A DNA stretch of 14,330 nt from a virus, in UHGV virus genome UHGV-0200011. One strand, given 5' to 3'. Of the stretch, positions 1,166 to 9,534 are shown piece after piece (position 1 is the first letter of the stretch; each line of letters begins with the position of its first letter). A model generated the notes under the pieces. The model had not been told where the DNA came from. It saw only the letters and a list, made by a program, of their open reading frames with translations, and did no database searches. A program made the position numbers and the translations under genes.

Positions 1166-1851
1166 ATACTCAATTTCTCGAATACGTGCGCCAGCAGTTG
1201 ATGGTGGCCACCGCCGATTTAAGTGGTGCGACGAAAGGGCAGTTGATGGCGTGGCTTGAAAACGCGCAGTTCGATACGGGAACGTTTAAACGTAAAAAGC
1301 CTCGAGTGCTGGATGAAGTGACCGGGGAAATGATTACGCTGGATAACCCGCCAATACCGGGCAAGCAGTCGCATGCCAAGGGTTCGCATATTCCCCTGGT
1401 GCAGCCGGTTGAATACTCCAGCGCATCGTGGCGCCGCGCACTGATGTCACTCGAAGAACACCAGAAAGCGTGGCTGCTATGGAACTATAGCGAGAACGTG
1501 CGCTGGTGCTATCAGGTGGAAATCACTCAATGGGCGTGGGCAGAGTTCCGGGAGCAGCTCGGCGCGAAGAAGGTGGCCGGCAAAACGATGGAGCGCCTGA
1601 AGAAGCTTGTCTGGCTCGCGGCTCAGGACGTGAAAGCAGAGCTGGCAGGGCGTGAGACGTACGAATATCAGGCGCTGGCGTCGCTGGTTGGCGTAACGCC
1701 AAAAAACTGGTCAGAGACCTTTACTGACCGCTGGGTTGAGATGCGCAGCATCTTCCTGCGACTGGATAGCGGGGCTTTATTGCAGGTTACGCGATCACGT
1801 TCACAACAAAAGGCGACAAATTTAGACTCAAGTCTTGCAAAACTGGATTGA
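1162..1851 (+). CDS. Late-gene antitermination protein Q (non-lambda Q family, QuuQ/82-like)
   Basis: 229-aa ORF immediately downstream of rusA/ylcG and immediately upstream of a promoter-terminator pair, the canonical position of lambdoid Q. Family assignment is from recollection and synteny, not alignment. Confidence 0.7.
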   Translation: MNTQFLEYVRQQLMVATADLSGATKGQLMAWLENAQFDTGTFKRKKPRVLDEVTGEMITLDNPPIPGKQSHAKGSHIPLVQPVEYSSASWRRALMSLEEHQKAWLLWNYSENVRWCYQVEITQWAWAEFREQLGAKKVAGKTMERLKKLVWLAAQDVKAELAGRETYEYQALASLVGVTPKNWSETFTDRWVEMRSIFLRLDSGALLQVTRSRSQQKATNLDSSLAKLD

Positions 1852-1863
1852 AACGCATATATT
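1835..1863 (+). promoter_or_regulatory. pR'-like late promoter (sigma70 -35 TTGCAA, 17-bp spacer, -10 TATATT)
   Basis: TTGCAA at 1835-1840 and TATATT at 1858-1863 with an exact 17-bp spacer, overlapping the 3' end of Q and about 55 bp upstream of a strong intrinsic terminator. Confidence 0.45.
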
Positions 1864-1917
1864 TCATGTAAATCTGATATCGTCGCCATAGCTTCGTAGG
1901 TCGACAAAGAATTAAGA

Positions 1918-1942
1918 GCCTCGCCATCGTGCGGGGCTTTTT
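1918..1942 (+). terminator. tR'-like intrinsic terminator
   Basis: Hairpin GCCTCGC-catcgt-GCGGGGC (7 bp including one G.U) followed by TTTTT. Confidence 0.6.
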
Positions 1943-1949
1943 CATTTCA

Positions 1950-2024
1950 GGGTCAGAAGCACAGCGGTTGTGCGTTCGGCTGTTAACCGAATGGTCGAAG
2001 GTTCGAATCCTTCCTGTCCCGCCA
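1950..2024 (+). tRNA. tRNA-like gene, anticodon GUU (Asn), non-canonical
   Basis: Hand-folded cloverleaf: acceptor GGGTCAG / CTGTCCC (one T-T mismatch), D-stem GCAC/GTGC, anticodon stem TTCGG/CCGAA with loop CTGTTAA, variable loop TGGTC, T-arm GAAGG-TTCGAAT-CCTTC, discriminator G and encoded CCA. Positions 8-9 are AA rather than U8. Confidence 0.5.
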
Positions 2025-2029
2025 AATTC

Positions 2030-2056
2030 GCCGGTCTAGTTCAGTGGCAGAGGTGG
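2030..2056 (+). pseudogene. tRNA 5'-fragment-like sequence (acceptor 5' strand + D-arm)
   Basis: GCCGGTC-TA-GTTCAGTGGCAGAGG resembles the canonical tRNA 5' region (U8 A9 and a D-arm with AGTGG loop) but no matching anticodon/T-arm follows; the HNH ORF begins at 2060. Confidence 0.25.
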
Positions 2057-2059
2057 TAA

Positions 2060-2485
2060 ATGCCGAGCAAAGATTACTATCTTAATCGAAGGGCTAGGCT
2101 TGCTAAGGCCGTGGAAAAGTTGGGTGGTCGTTGCGCGAGTTGCGGATCCGAATATTCGCTTCAGTTTGACCGCATAGACCCTTCCACCAAATCAGCAAAT
2201 GTAAGCGAGATGCACTATCACTCAGATTCGGTGTTTTATGCTGAGGTTGAAAAGTGCCAACTACTATGTTCTGCATGCCACATTCAGAAAACCAAATTTG
2301 ACCTTAGCTACTTAGTAGCTGGTGAGCTGAATGGTATGAGCAAGCTAACAATGGACAGCGTCCAGTTCATCAGAGAAAACTACATTCCACGACATAAGGT
2401 TTATGGAGCCAGAGGGCTAGGGAGAATGTTTGGTGTAACACATCAAACAGTGCTTTCAGCCTTAAATGGCGAAACCTGGAAATAA
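2060..2485 (+). CDS. HNH-family (homing) endonuclease-like protein with C-terminal NUMOD-like helix-turn-helix
   Basis: 141-aa ORF with CxxC (C25/C28), a FDRIDP segment, CSACH (C70/C73/H74) and a C-terminal GLGRMFGVTHQTVLSALNG motif typical of phage homing-endonuclease DNA-binding modules. Visibly more AT-rich than flanking phage genes; AGAGGTGG precedes the ATG. Confidence 0.7.
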   Translation: MPSKDYYLNRRARLAKAVEKLGGRCASCGSEYSLQFDRIDPSTKSANVSEMHYHSDSVFYAEVEKCQLLCSACHIQKTKFDLSYLVAGELNGMSKLTMDSVQFIRENYIPRHKVYGARGLGRMFGVTHQTVLSALNGETWK

Positions 2486-2486
2486 G

Positions 2487-2523
2487 CTGCGCGTCAGAGG
2501 TTCGATTCCTTTGCCCGCTCCAG
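2487..2523 (+). pseudogene. tRNA 3'-fragment-like sequence (T-arm + acceptor 3' strand)
   Basis: AGAGG-TTCGATT-CCTTT T-arm followed by GCCCGCT and CCAG, directly after the HNH stop; no complementary 5' acceptor strand is found nearby. Confidence 0.35.
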
Positions 2524-2902
2524 TAAAAGCTTTCCAGTCTGCGATGATGGGTTCCCCGGAGTGACTGGAAAGCGACCTGGTTTTGAATGGGCGCTGCTTT
2601 TTGCAAAATTGCTGTGTGAAAATACTGACCTTTGGGTTCAGCGCTCATCCAAAAGCATCACGTGAATTCACCAACGCTCATGTACTCTCCAGGAAACAAT
2701 AAGTGATTCTGAAAAGTTCCGGTTAGATATTGCCCCGGTCACCGGATGATTTTATCTTTTGGTTCGTGGTGAATCCCCCTATGCGGCGGGGCGTCCAGTC
2801 AAACTTTTTTGTCCAGGTTTGTTTGCGCGGAACTAGTCGGCTGGGGCTGTTCCACCGGGAGGCACCCGGCGCCACCTCCTTGACGGTATTGTTATTTTTC
2901 AT

Positions 2903-3338: not shown

Positions 3339-3617
3339 ATGACCAGAATGAGCACCATTTACAGCAGACTTTCATATGGAACAGGCACCACGCTGACCGG
3401 CTGCGGTGTATCAGCGAAGGCATATGCCGAAACAGCAAAAACAGCAAAAGAGGTGTCCTGGATGTTGGCCGACAGAATTGCAGGGTTAAGCCTGAGCGAC
3501 TGGGCAATTATTGTCGGTATCGCATGCACGGTAATCACCTGTGCAGTGAACTGGTATTTCCGCTGGAAAGAACGGGAGGATCGGCGCAATGGCTATGTCT
3601 CTAAAGCTGAAGAATAA
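3339..3617 (+). CDS. Holin, P21 S-type pinholin-like, with dual-start motif
   Basis: 92-aa ORF with a Gly/Thr/Ala-rich first hydrophobic segment and a second TM segment (WAIIVGIACTVITCAVNWYF) followed by KEREDRR, resembling S21 as recalled. N-terminus MTRM gives two in-frame starts (3339 and 3348) separated by a basic residue. GGAGGTGAGG precedes the ATG. Confidence 0.75.
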   Translation: MTRMSTIYSRLSYGTGTTLTGCGVSAKAYAETAKTAKEVSWMLADRIAGLSLSDWAIIVGIACTVITCAVNWYFRWKEREDRRNGYVSKAEE

Positions 3618-4137
3618 ATTGAGCGCAGCGGTCGTTGGTTTGATTCTTGCCGGGGCTTCCGCACCCGTGATTCTCGATCAGTTTCTGGATGAGAAAGAGG
3701 GTAACAGCTTGACAGCATATCGCGACGGCGGCGGACTCTGGACCATTTGCCGTGGTGCAACAATGGTTGATGGCAAGCCAGTAGTACAGGGCATGAAGCT
3801 GTCAGCTGAGAAATGCGCCCAGGTAAACGCCATTGAACGCGACAAGGCGCTGGCGTGGGTTGACCGAAATATCAAAGTACCACTGACCGAACCACAGAAA
3901 GCGGGTATCGCTTCTTTCTGCCCATATAACATCGGCCCCGGAAAATGTTTCCCGTCTACGTTCTATAAGCGAATTAATGCTGGCGATACGAAAGGAGCCT
4001 GTGAAGCTATCCGCTGGTGGATTAAAGACGGTGGCCGCGATTGCCGCCTGACCAAGGGCCAGAAGGATGGATGTTATGGGCAGGTAGAACGGCGGGACCA
4101 GGAAAGCGCACTGACGTGCTGGGGGATAGACCAGTGA
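3589..4137 (+). CDS. SAR endolysin (T4-lysozyme-like, GH24 muramidase)
   Basis: N-terminal signal-anchor-release type segment (LSAAVVGLILAGASAPVIL) then E-x8-D-x5-T catalytic spacing (EGNSLTAYRDGGGLWT), resembling P21 R21 as recalled. Start overlaps the holin 3' end. Confidence 0.85.
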   Translation: MAMSLKLKNKLSAAVVGLILAGASAPVILDQFLDEKEGNSLTAYRDGGGLWTICRGATMVDGKPVVQGMKLSAEKCAQVNAIERDKALAWVDRNIKVPLTEPQKAGIASFCPYNIGPGKCFPSTFYKRINAGDTKGACEAIRWWIKDGGRDCRLTKGQKDGCYGQVERRDQESALTCWGIDQ

Positions 4138-4637
4138 AGCCGGGTGGCATCTGCATCATTGTGATTGTTGCGTTGGTAGGTTCGTTTCTCGCTGGCAGTG
4201 AGTGGACGAACCGCAGCTGGAAAATAAAGTGGGCTGACCGGGATAGCGCGGAATCTTCACAGGAAGCGAATGCACAGACCGCAGCTCGTATGATTGAACA
4301 AGGGCGAACAATCGCCCGGGATGAGGCCGTTAAAGATGCTCAAGCTCAAGCAGCGAGCGCTGCCGTTACTTCTGCTGGCCTGGCTACCACTGTTAAGCAG
4401 CTGCGCGCCGAAGCAACAAAACTCGCTACCCACATGGACGCCGCAAAGCACACCGCAGATCTCGCCACTTCCGTCAGAAGCAAAACAGCCGGAGCCAACG
4501 CAGCAATGCTTGCCGACATGCTCGGAAGCCTTGCAGAAGCAGCTCGATATTATGCTGGACGATCTGACGAAAGCTACCGGGCAGGAATGACGTGTGAGCG
4601 GATTTACGAATCAGTGCGACTGTCGAATAACCAATAG
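4134..4637 (+). CDS. Rz: Rz-like inner-membrane spanin (i-spanin)
   Basis: GTG 4134 overlaps the endolysin stop (GTGA) and is in frame with the 4041..4637 ORF. N-terminal TM helix ICIIVIVALVGSFLAGS followed by an Ala/Gln-rich coiled-coil-like periplasmic domain. The ORF-track start at 4041 lies inside the endolysin gene. Confidence 0.7.
   Translation: MKPGGICIIVIVALVGSFLAGSEWTNRSWKIKWADRDSAESSQEANAQTAARMIEQGRTIARDEAVKDAQAQAASAAVTSAGLATTVKQLRAEATKLATHMDAAKHTADLATSVRSKTAGANAAMLADMLGSLAEAARYYAGRSDESYRAGMTCERIYESVRLSNNQ
4336..4590 (+). CDS. Rz1: Rz1-like outer-membrane lipoprotein spanin (o-spanin), embedded in Rz in the +1 frame
   Basis: Signal peptide with lipobox LLSSC, then a proline-rich mature region, wholly inside Rz in another frame. 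Start chosen at MLKLKQ (4336); in-frame alternatives exist at 4294 and 4321. Confidence 0.65.
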   Translation: MLKLKQRALPLLLLAWLPLLSSCAPKQQNSLPTWTPQSTPQISPLPSEAKQPEPTQQCLPTCSEALQKQLDIMLDDLTKATGQE

Positions 4638-4809
4638 GCGATTCATGCTGCTAGTTTTCGTCCTCTTGTCGATATGGCTCTGTCGGCAACATGAGGAACG
4701 CCGCTGGCCTTCGGTCGGCTTTAATGTCTCATCGCTGATGCTCATCACCGAGCAACCGGCACGCAGTAAGGGGCTGCGCTGAGATAAGAGCCGAGAATTC
4801 AATCAAATC

Positions 4810-7091: not shown

Positions 7092-7637
7092 ATGGAGGTT
7101 AACAAAAAACGCTTATCCGAAATTTTCGGGGTAAGCGTCCGAACGATTCAGAACTGGCAGGAGCAAGGTATGCCGGTTGTCCGCGGTGGTGGCAAAGGTA
7201 ATGAGGTTCTCTTTGAATCTGCTGCTGCAATCGAATGGTACAGTGCGCGCGATGCAGCTATAGAAAATGAAAAGTTGCGGAAGGAAGTTGAAGATCTCCG
7301 TATCGCTTCTGAGTCCGATCTTCAACCTGGCACGATTGAATATGAGCGACACCGACTTACGCGAGCTCAGGCTGACGCTCAGGAATTAAAAAATGCAAAA
7401 GAGTCCGCTGAAGTGGTGGAGACCGCATTCTGCACGTTCGTGCTGTCGCGGGTAGCCGGAGAAATCGCCAGCATTCTCGATGGAATACCTCTGTCGGTTC
7501 AGCGGCGCTTCCCGGAGCTGGAGAACCGACATATTGATTTCCTCAAGAAGGACATCATTAAGGCCATGAACAAGGCAGCTGCGCTGGATGAAATGATACC
7601 GGGGTTGCTGAGTGAATATATCGAACAGTCAGGTTAA
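7092..7637 (+). CDS. nu1: Terminase small subunit Nu1
   Basis: 181-aa protein MEVNKKRLSEIFGVSVRTIQNWQEQGMPV..., highly similar to lambda Nu1 as recalled; AGGAG RBS. Confidence 0.92.
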   Translation: MEVNKKRLSEIFGVSVRTIQNWQEQGMPVVRGGGKGNEVLFESAAAIEWYSARDAAIENEKLRKEVEDLRIASESDLQPGTIEYERHRLTRAQADAQELKNAKESAEVVETAFCTFVLSRVAGEIASILDGIPLSVQRRFPELENRHIDFLKKDIIKAMNKAAALDEMIPGLLSEYIEQSG

Positions 7638-9534
7638 GGGGCTGCAGCACTCTGCGCGGGCGGGGTTACGTTCGCTGTACCGGCCGCAACCGCAAACAGC
7701 AGTTGAATGGGCAGATGAGAATTATTATCTCCCGAAAGAGTCTGCCTACCAGGAAGGGCGCTGGGAAACACTGCCATTTCAGCGTGCAATTATGAATGCG
7801 ATGGGTAATGACTATATTCGCGAGGTGAATGTCGTTAAATCGGCTCGTGTCGGCTACTCAAAAATGTTGCTCGGCGTTTACGCATATTTCATCCAACATA
7901 AACAGCGTAACTCCCTAATATGGTTACCAACCGACGGTGATGCTGAAAACTTCATGAAGTCTCATGTAGAACCGACCATTCGTGATATTCCGACGTTGCT
8001 GGCGCTTGCTCCCTGGTACGGTAAAAAACACCGGGACAATACGCTGAGCATGAAGCGTTTCTCGAATGGTCGTGGTTTCTGGTGCCTGGGCGGTAAGGCT
8101 GCAAAAAACTACCGTGAAAAATCAGTTGATGTGGCTGGCTACGACGAGCTCGCCGCTTTCGATGATGACATCGAGAAAGAAGGTTCTCCCACCTTTCTGG
8201 GTGATAAGCGTATTGAGGGTTCTGTATGGCCGAAATCCATTCGCGGATCTACACCGAAAGTCAAAGGTACGTGCCAGATAGAAAGAGCTGCTAAGGAGTC
8301 TGAACATTTTCTTCGGTTCCATGTTCCATGCCCACACTGTGGGGAAGAGCAGTATCTGAAATTCGGTGATAAAGAGACACCATTTGGCTTCAAATGGTCT
8401 CCGGGAGAACCTGCCAGCGTTTACTACCTCTGTGAACACAATGCCTGTGTGATTAAACAACAGGAGCTGGAATTTCTGGAGGCCAGGTATATTTGTGATG
8501 AAACAGGTATCTGGACACGAGACGGCCTTAACTGGTTTTCTTCATCCGGTACCGAAATTGAACCTCCTGATAGCGTTACATTCCACATCTGGACCGCATA
8601 TAGCCCGTTCACAACCTGGGTGCAGATCGTCAAGGACTGGATAAAAACAAAAGGTGATACGGGTAAGCGAAAAACTTTCGTTAACACGACCCTGGGCGAA
8701 ACGTGGGAACCGAAAATAGGTGAGCGACCCGATGCTGAAGTTTTAGCGGAACGAAAAGAGCACTTTGAAGCGTCTGTGCCGGAGCGAGTGGCATATCTGA
8801 CAGCGGGTATTGACTCCCAGCTTGACCGTTACGAAATGCGTGTTTGGGGATGGGGGCCGGGAGAGGAAAGCTGGCTTATCGACAAAATTATCATTATGGG
8901 TCGTCATGATGATGAGTCGACTCTCGCTCGAGTTGATGAAGCGATCAACAGGACGTATAAGCGCCAGAACGGTCTCGAAATGGTTATATCCCGCACTTGC
9001 TGGGATATTGGCGGCATTGATCCCACCATCGTCTACAACCGCTCAAAAAAACACGGTCTGTTTCGTGTGATCCCTATAAAGGGGGCGTCGGTTTATGGAA
9101 AGCCAGTGGCGAACATGCCACGCAAGCGTAACAAGAATGGTGTTTACCTCACAGAGGTAGGAACAGACACCGCAAAAGAGCAGATTTATAACCGTTTCAC
9201 GCTGGTGGCGCAAAGAGACGAGCCGCTGGCGGGAGCGGTTCATTTCCCGAATAACCCAGAAATCTACGATCTAACAGAGGCCCAACAACTAACAGCTGAA
9301 GAGCAGGTGGAAAAATGGGTAGACGGAAAGAAAAAGATCGTCTGGGACAGCAAAAAACGACGAAATGAGGCGCTCGATTGCTTTGTTTATGCACTGGCGG
9401 CGCTGCGTATAAGCATATCCCGCTGGCAGCTAAATCTTGATTCACTTCTGGCCAGCCTGCTGGAGGAAGAAGGCAGCCGTAACAATAACAAGACCCTGGC
9501 GGATTACGCGCGGGCATTATCTGGAGATGAATAA
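7612..9534 (+). CDS. A: Terminase large subunit A
   Basis: 640-aa protein [41 protein letters not shown]..., close to lambda gpA as recalled; overlaps the Nu1 3' end as in lambda. Confidence 0.95.

Follow-up and report, generated by a model that had tools for sequence, protein, structure and literature searches.

A candidate free-standing homing endonuclease gene of the HNH family, probably inactivated, inside a tRNA-Thr gene of a lambdoid E. coli prophage

The window analysed here is the whole 14,330-nt stretch of the virus genome UHGV-0200011, and it contains an ORF for a protein of the HNH nuclease family that splits a tRNA-Thr(UGU) gene. The element is interpreted, with moderate confidence, as a free-standing homing endonuclease of phage tRNA clusters, which has probably been inactivated in the window copy. 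Three of the properties expected of a homing endonuclease were found: the same site is filled in some genomes and empty in others, the protein combines a nuclease with a DNA-binding domain, and the same insertion point is occupied in a diverged target, together with the flank of the donor. The features of the locus are listed in Table 1.

Table 1. Features of the window around the split tRNA-Thr gene (positions from the first base of the window).
Feature	Position	Strand	Basis or remark
Antiterminator Q ORF, 229 aa	1162-1851		Identical loci carry Pfam Phage_antiter_Q
Promoter-like site at the position of the late promoter pR'	1835-1863	+	Consensus scan only: TTGCAA-17-TATATT
Short leader RNA with terminator hairpin	1867-1940	+	Rfam RF01393 (isrJ), 68.7 bits (gathering score 37)
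Intact tRNA-Asn(GTT)	1950-2024	+	ARAGORN; Rfam tRNA, 63.9 bits
tRNA-Thr(UGU) 5' remnant, gene nt 1-22	2030-2051	+	22/22 identical to the intact Thr of L001 and L003
Shine-Dalgarno-like GAGGTGG	2050-2056	+	Read from the sequence; junction from filled/empty comparison
Inserted segment, 431 nt	2052-2482	+	Comparison of filled and empty alleles
ORF, 141 aa	2060-2485	+	HNH domain ~residues 9-84; helix-turn-helix ~residues 90-141
Codon 38, CGC (Arg) in place of CAC (first HNH-motif His)	2171-2173	+	Changed base G2172
tRNA-Thr 3' remnant, gene nt 35-69	2483-2517	+	35/35 identical to the intact Thr of L001 and L003
tRNA-Gly-type 3' end CTCCA (2518-2522) and tRNA-Gly downstream sequence of other lambdoid phages	2518-2750	+	
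Holin and lysozyme genes	3339-4137		
Terminase-position ORFs	7092-7637 and 7612-9534		

The window represents the late region of a lambdoid E. coli prophage, with Q, a leader RNA, tRNA-Asn and the split tRNA-Thr(UGU). Phage 21 and Sf6 share the gene order of pR', leader/terminator, tRNA-Asn, tRNA-Thr and lysis genes; the layout is that of a lambdoid late region, as the first-pass annotation had proposed, and the tRNA-Asn that it regarded as intact was called by both ARAGORN and Rfam. The place of the promoter-like site agrees with the annotated pR' of phage 21, which also has its late leader and terminator at the position equivalent to the leader RNA of the window. The Salmonella 'island-encoded' sRNA isrJ matches this leader interval over its full length, and Gifsy-1 matches the same interval; isrJ thus looks like the short leader RNA that is transcribed from a lambdoid late promoter and ends at a terminator.

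Comparison of filled and empty alleles revealed the structure of the split gene. Empty alleles with an intact tRNA-Thr and no ORF were found in E. coli EM18-18-42, Enterobacter phage ENT1, phage 21 and Sf6 (L001, L003, L020 and L021). In E. coli EM18-18-42, the tRNA-Asn is followed by five bases and then by an intact 74-nt tRNA-Thr(UGU); ENT1 has an Asn-Gly-Thr cluster. The 5' remnant in the window comprises the acceptor 5' strand and the D-arm up to GCAGA, and the 3' remnant comprises the last anticodon base, the 3' strand of the anticodon stem, the variable loop, the T-arm and part of the acceptor 3' strand. The insert stands in place of 12 nt (Thr nt 23-34, C/ACGGCAGCCTTG): the D-stem has lost its 3' strand and the anticodon stem its 5' strand, and two anticodon bases, the first and the second, are gone as well. 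Because these 12 nt of the tRNA body are replaced, no tRNA-Thr can be made from the split gene. The ORF in turn relies on the remnants for its stop codon and for part of the ribosome-binding site: the first two bases of the Shine-Dalgarno-like GAGGTGG come from the tRNA and the remainder from the insert, and the stop TAA (2483-2485) consists of the last anticodon base and the next two loop bases of tRNA-Thr. An isogenic filled/empty pair was not found, and the flanks of the best empty allele (E. coli EM18-18-42) are 92-94% identical over ~100-150 nt only. A 7-nt match to the missing anticodon-stem sequence (CAGCCTT, 2454-2460) was dismissed as chance: it lies in codons (Ser-Ala-Leu) belonging to a motif whose amino acids are conserved in homologs, where other codons are used.

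These results refine the description in the first-pass annotation, which had placed tRNA-like segments on both sides of the ORF. Both are real pieces of tRNA-Thr; however, homology of the 5' piece stops at 2051/2052 and not at 2056, and the 3' piece begins at 2483 and not at 2487, with a 3' end that is a Thr/Gly chimera. A disrupted or replaced tRNA had been suggested. Disruption is borne out by the intact tRNA-Thr that occupies the exact site in related lambdoid phages without the HNH gene; replacement is not, since the gene is split with a loss of 12 nt. The covariance-model and ARAGORN check proposed for the fragments failed to detect them. ARAGORN (introns allowed) and the Rfam tRNA model (E<=10) called the tRNA-Asn only, although alignment shows that both fragments derive from tRNA-Thr. 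The absence of such a call would thus wrongly dismiss real tRNA pieces, because only the comparison with intact Thr genes reveals them.

Group I introns are known in bacterial and phage tRNA genes (PMC3984707), and tRNA-like sequence on both sides of an endonuclease ORF might also suggest an intron-encoded endonuclease, with a self-splicing intron and a tRNA restored from the two fragments. This explanation is rejected as extremely improbable. Twelve tRNA nt are absent, two anticodon bases among them, and the ORF extends from 8 nt past the left junction of the insert to the right junction, which leaves no room for a ribozyme. No intron family was found in Rfam at E<=10, the ARAGORN search with introns allowed returned only the tRNA-Asn, and the Gly-type 3' acceptor strand of the window leaves the 5' strand unpaired. 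Trial splicing of the window (2,250 splices) gave four calls of a poor 'tRNA-Leu(taa)', whose anticodon stem contains A-C and G-G mismatches and whose long arm is unpaired; these were rejected.

The tRNA remnants show no sign of constraint or of refreshment by repeated homing. Segregating sites number 9 of 57 in the remnants and 11 of 59 among fourfold sites (Fisher p=0.8), and because their variation is close to that of fourfold sites the remnants are plain pseudogene pieces. One other copy of the Arg-38 allele (L032) has two substitutions in the remnant acceptor 5' strand (TCCGGAC vs GCCGGTC), which fits neutral decay of the tRNA fragment.

The right end of the locus carries the trace of another exchange. 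The switch from Thr to Gly lies within a shared GCCCG (2513-2517), and the sequence that follows matches E. coli FAM21845 (L004; Ile-Thr-Gly cluster) and phage HK639, so that the window acceptor 3' strand is Gly-type and unpaired with the Thr-type 5' strand. In the Enterobacter prophages (L007-L010), the remnant still ends as a genuine Thr gene does (GCCCGGCAC) and is continued by the sequence found after Thr in empty alleles. The CTCCA end of the window stems from a separate recombination, a second event at the locus. The tRNA genes in this late region are evidently crossover points. Phage HK639 (L002, ~1612-1690) also has a chimeric tRNA-Gly, which is non-functional and uncalled by ARAGORN; it joins an ENT1-type 5' half to a FAM21845-type 3' half in the anticodon loop (CTTCCAA), and represents a second case of a lambdoid mosaic joint within a tRNA gene.

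The ORF is present as first described, and its assignment to the HNH nuclease family was confirmed. Residues 11-84 match PHROG 4234 'HNH endonuclease' in a profile search (E=9e-20), Pfam HNH (PF01844) is matched by 12 of 21 homologs, and a twin of the window protein with His-38 scores above the Pfam HNH threshold. The motifs of the HNH domain are CxxC (25-28), D37-R38 and CxxCH (70-74). C25, C28, C66/C70 and H74 are invariant across the 21 homologs and C73 is present in the window protein, which retains the four zinc cysteines (two CxxC pairs) and the last motif histidine (CxxCH). The AlphaFold model (mean pLDDT 83.8) has a strand-strand-helix core, which is the beta-beta-alpha fold of the HNH superfamily, followed by three to four short helices. 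The tails of the two closest full-length homologs match HTH_7, HTH_38 and HTH_28. The protein thus consists of an HNH (beta-beta-alpha-metal) nuclease domain and a C-terminal helix-turn-helix DNA-binding domain. The earlier label 'NUMOD-like' has to be dropped, since no NUMOD family was matched by the window protein in Pfam (E<=10) and the C-terminal domain is a helix-turn-helix. The gene had also been called AT-rich; its GC content is indeed lower, but modestly so (0.448 vs 0.516 for the whole window). The pN/pS ratio of 0.18-0.36 indicates that the protein has been under purifying selection. Sequence searches of the PDB gave nothing significant, NCBIfam gave no meaningful match, Foldseek against the PDB gave no match at E<=0.001, and a scan of genome contigs with the single protein as query found no relative.

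HNH proteins of similar size assist the terminase at cos in HK97-like phages (PMC10448857), which raises a packaging accessory as another role for the gene. Such a role is very unlikely here. The ORF is placed after Q and before the lysis genes, and ~4.6 kb separate it from the terminase-position ORFs downstream (7092-7637 and 7612-9534). Related prophages and phages do without the gene. Moreover, relatives of the protein occur in tRNA clusters, and no terminase was adjacent where the neighbours were examined.

The first histidine of the HNH motif serves as the general base in the HNH superfamily. Its replacement in the window protein (FDRIDP) had been noticed in the first-pass annotation and was verified at codon 38. 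Histidine occupies this position in 19 of the 21 aligned homologs and in all 14 other variants of the cluster, and the codon is CAC in four complete E. coli genomes, in Enterobacter contigs and in 17 of 18 IMG/VR copies. Over 896 bases, about one difference separates the window from E. coli L6-21 (99.9% identity); within the ORF, the codon 38 base is the only one that differs. Since Arg-38 is one base away from its His-38 twin and all other variants examined have His, it is best read as a derived allele and not as a feature of the family. It is neither a sequencing error nor private to the window: the exact Arg-38 protein was found on at least 42 contigs (74 blocks of the sequence collection), and the allele occurs in two downstream flank contexts with no other base change.

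The single substitution is also reflected in the annotation of the two alleles. The Pfam HNH score is 15.1 bits for the window protein and 23.4 bits for the His-38 twin (P0023), with a threshold of 21.4. The sources of the sequences name the Arg-38 protein 'hypothetical protein' and the His-38 twin (301 contigs) 'HNH endonuclease', which agrees with scores on either side of the threshold. With the general base of the HNH motif gone, activity has likely been lost, and the window copy is probably nuclease-dead. The window protein is by descent a member of the HNH family, in which the lost residue is known to be catalytic. The Arg allele occurs in two downstream contexts and is carried by at least 42 contigs, which suggests that it is not obviously at a disadvantage.

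The same persistence might point to domestication, in which the Arg-38 protein would be kept for the binding of tRNA-Thr-like DNA by its helix-turn-helix, and might serve in regulation or shield such sites from the active enzyme of rival phages. The intact Arg-38 ORF without any other change and its occurrence on at least 42 contigs in two downstream contexts could be taken in this sense. Nevertheless, domestication is improbable. The allele is a single base from the active type, hence young and without time to show selection; no second adaptive change was seen, and recombination at the tRNA remnant accounts for the two contexts without selection.

Filled alleles occur in E. coli and Enterobacter (the window, L006-10, L016-18 and L031-58). 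The left and right junctions are identical in all 36 close copies compared, which have 92-100% protein identity and up to 28 of 426 ORF bases different from the window; their tRNA contexts are Asn-Thr, Asn-Gly-Thr and Asn-Thr-Arg. The identical junctions point to one ancestral insertion, from which all filled alleles would descend. The element is rare: 5,426 complete E. coli genomes contain four full copies and two truncated ones. The empty type-A Thr was found in six genomes, and the empty module of the phage-21 type in 363 or more. The truncated copies, in E. coli ECONIH5 and C 236-04A (L005 and L019), retain only the first ~95 ORF bases after a phage-21-type Thr 5' fragment, immediately followed by the DNA that precedes a lambda-type holin gene; these are deletion derivatives of the filled allele.

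The ORF of E. coli L6-21 recurs with 100% identity behind a phage-21-type tRNA-Asn and a phage-21-type Thr 5' fragment GCTGGTTTAGCTCCAATGGTAGAG, which is diverged from the Thr of the window. On the right, these copies (L006, L016, L042 and L047) have the type-A Thr 3' remnant and window-type downstream DNA. The crossover lies at the edge of the cassette, where the two Thr genes share few bases, and not in the 13 identical nt with which tRNA-Asn ends. A break in a phage-21-type Thr that was repaired from a cassette-bearing phage would give exactly such a joint, which is suggestive, with chance recombination as the alternative. This evidence (including the truncated L005 and L019) represents one lineage of events and is not statistical.

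The distribution might also be explained by passive cargo. The cassette would then have landed once, by illegitimate recombination, in a dispensable tRNA gene and have spread with prophages and lambdoid mosaic recombination, short conserved tRNA sequences acting as crossover points; the nuclease would have another role, or no site-specific role here. All copies have a single set of junctions, and identical junctions mean that the spread could be ordinary prophage inheritance and mosaic recombination. The remnants drift neutrally, at about the rate of fourfold sites, and so give no signal of repeated re-homing; the element is rare, and crossover points in tRNA genes have been seen both in the window (the Thr/Gly chimera) and in HK639 (the chimeric tRNA-Gly). 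Passive cargo is thus a possibility to be taken seriously, but it is still judged unlikely. The crossover in the phage-21-type copies was at the cassette edge with few bases of identity, and not in the nearby 13-nt identity, and the protein is under purifying selection. Its nuclease and DNA-binding architecture, as well as the tRNA adjacency of its relatives across unrelated phages, fits site-directed mobility.

As a homing endonuclease, the element might work as follows. The ORF would be expressed from the Q-dependent late transcript during late lytic growth, and the active enzyme would cut the intact tRNA-Thr genes of co-resident or co-infecting lambdoid phages, presumably close to the part of the D-arm and anticodon arm that is missing in cassette carriers. 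Repair of the break with the cassette-bearing genome as template would copy the endonuclease gene and adjacent late-region DNA into the rival phage. The carrier would be immune because the insertion has removed its own target site. The Arg-38 copy may persist passively with the prophage, in the decay phase of the homing-endonuclease life cycle.

Relatives of the protein are often, but not always, found beside tRNA genes. Among 62 distant IMG/VR loci, 20 have a same-strand tRNA that starts between -39 and +35 nt from the ORF end; no tRNA gene lies close to certain other relatives. In distant relatives (loci L059-L120, L011, L012 and L026-L029), the ORF often reaches into the same-strand tRNA that follows and has its stop codon there, in many cases at tRNA nt 8-10, and the adjoining tRNA is most often tRNA-Lys (11 of 25 cases listed). 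Metagenomic contigs with arrays of 15 tRNAs also carry HNH-domain homologs. In named phages, the homolog overlaps tRNA-Lys in E. coli phage JohannJBalmer, lies between tRNA-Trp and tRNA-Leu in Mycobacterium phage Crossroads, and adjoins tRNA genes in Streptomyces phages Forrest and Mildred21. These genes, annotated as endonucleases and each beside or overlapping a tRNA gene, have an N-terminal HNH domain homologous to that of the window protein (36-51% identity, tblastn). Their neighbouring tRNAs are intact, unlike the split tRNA-Thr of the window, and most of the proteins lack the helix-turn-helix tail. It is conceivable, though improbable, that the clade is a dedicated tRNA-gene-homing HNH family, normally placed at the 5' edge of a tRNA with its stop codon inside the tRNA; the lambdoid member would then have come to lie inside the tRNA body, with Arg-38 as a retained nuclease-dead DNA-binding derivative, for instance a shield of tRNA-Thr sites against the enzyme of rival phages, and hence not simply a gene in decay. 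On one metagenomic phage-like contig (L011), a tRNA-like sequence uncalled by ARAGORN (3497-3575) lies downstream of a 45%-identical homolog (P0003), and ARAGORN predicted a tmRNA-like gene (4373-4738) with the tag peptide ANTNVWMGATVPASTLVLV.

The comparison with T4 segB made in the first-pass annotation proved apt. T4 SegB is a free-standing GIY-YIG homing endonuclease in the tRNA cluster of T4; it cuts inside tRNA genes, whose T-loop motif it recognises, and causes preferential inheritance of the tRNA region (PMC2330249). Both systems have a free-standing endonuclease gene in a phage tRNA cluster, and its presence varies among related phages. The fold is different, however, being GIY-YIG in SegB and HNH in the window protein. 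The segB gene lies between tRNA genes of a virulent phage, whereas the window gene lies inside a tRNA gene of a temperate lambdoid prophage and destroys it. Moreover, cleavage was demonstrated for SegB and is a prediction for the window protein.

The HNH genes of phage T5 also lie in a tRNA cluster (PMC2330249). Here again, HNH-family genes are embedded among phage tRNA genes, and both hegC and hegD overlap the following tRNA at its 5' end. The T5 proteins differ in their larger size and other DNA-binding modules, and T5 itself is virulent; hegC and hegD showed no useful similarity to the window protein, and hegA a marginal one (E=0.009, pairwise). In the T5 record (L121), hegD (2398-2979) overlaps the 5' end of a tRNA-Gln(CUG) (2345-2420) given as a pseudogene; there, too, an HNH gene may have damaged the adjacent tRNA gene. 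The occurrence of nuclease genes at the boundaries of exchange is a theme already described (PMC10448857); a full-text literature search found no description of the present element. The locus differs from the known systems in its temperate lambdoid setting, in the insertion inside and not beside a tRNA gene, and in the circulating catalytic-site mutant.

The mechanism itself will hardly surprise specialists, being an ordinary homing-endonuclease story in a slightly unusual place. The locus provides a clean natural example of a homing-type endonuclease gene in temperate lambdoid prophages instead of the usual large virulent phages, and the empty, filled and hybrid sites, the truncated copies and a mutant of a catalytic residue are all available in public genomes. 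For annotation, tRNA-Thr is the source of the "tRNA fragments" seen behind tRNA-Asn in these prophages, and one base change decides whether a pipeline assigns the label "HNH endonuclease" or "hypothetical". For phage mosaicism, the tRNA genes and the nuclease gene at their edge are crossover points between different Q and lysis modules. The extended non-coding interval that separates the holin gene from the tRNA remnants also contains a full-length match to the sRNA family STnc100 (RF02076; 2741-2933, 71.7 bits), which closes with a terminator-like hairpin at 2903-2922.
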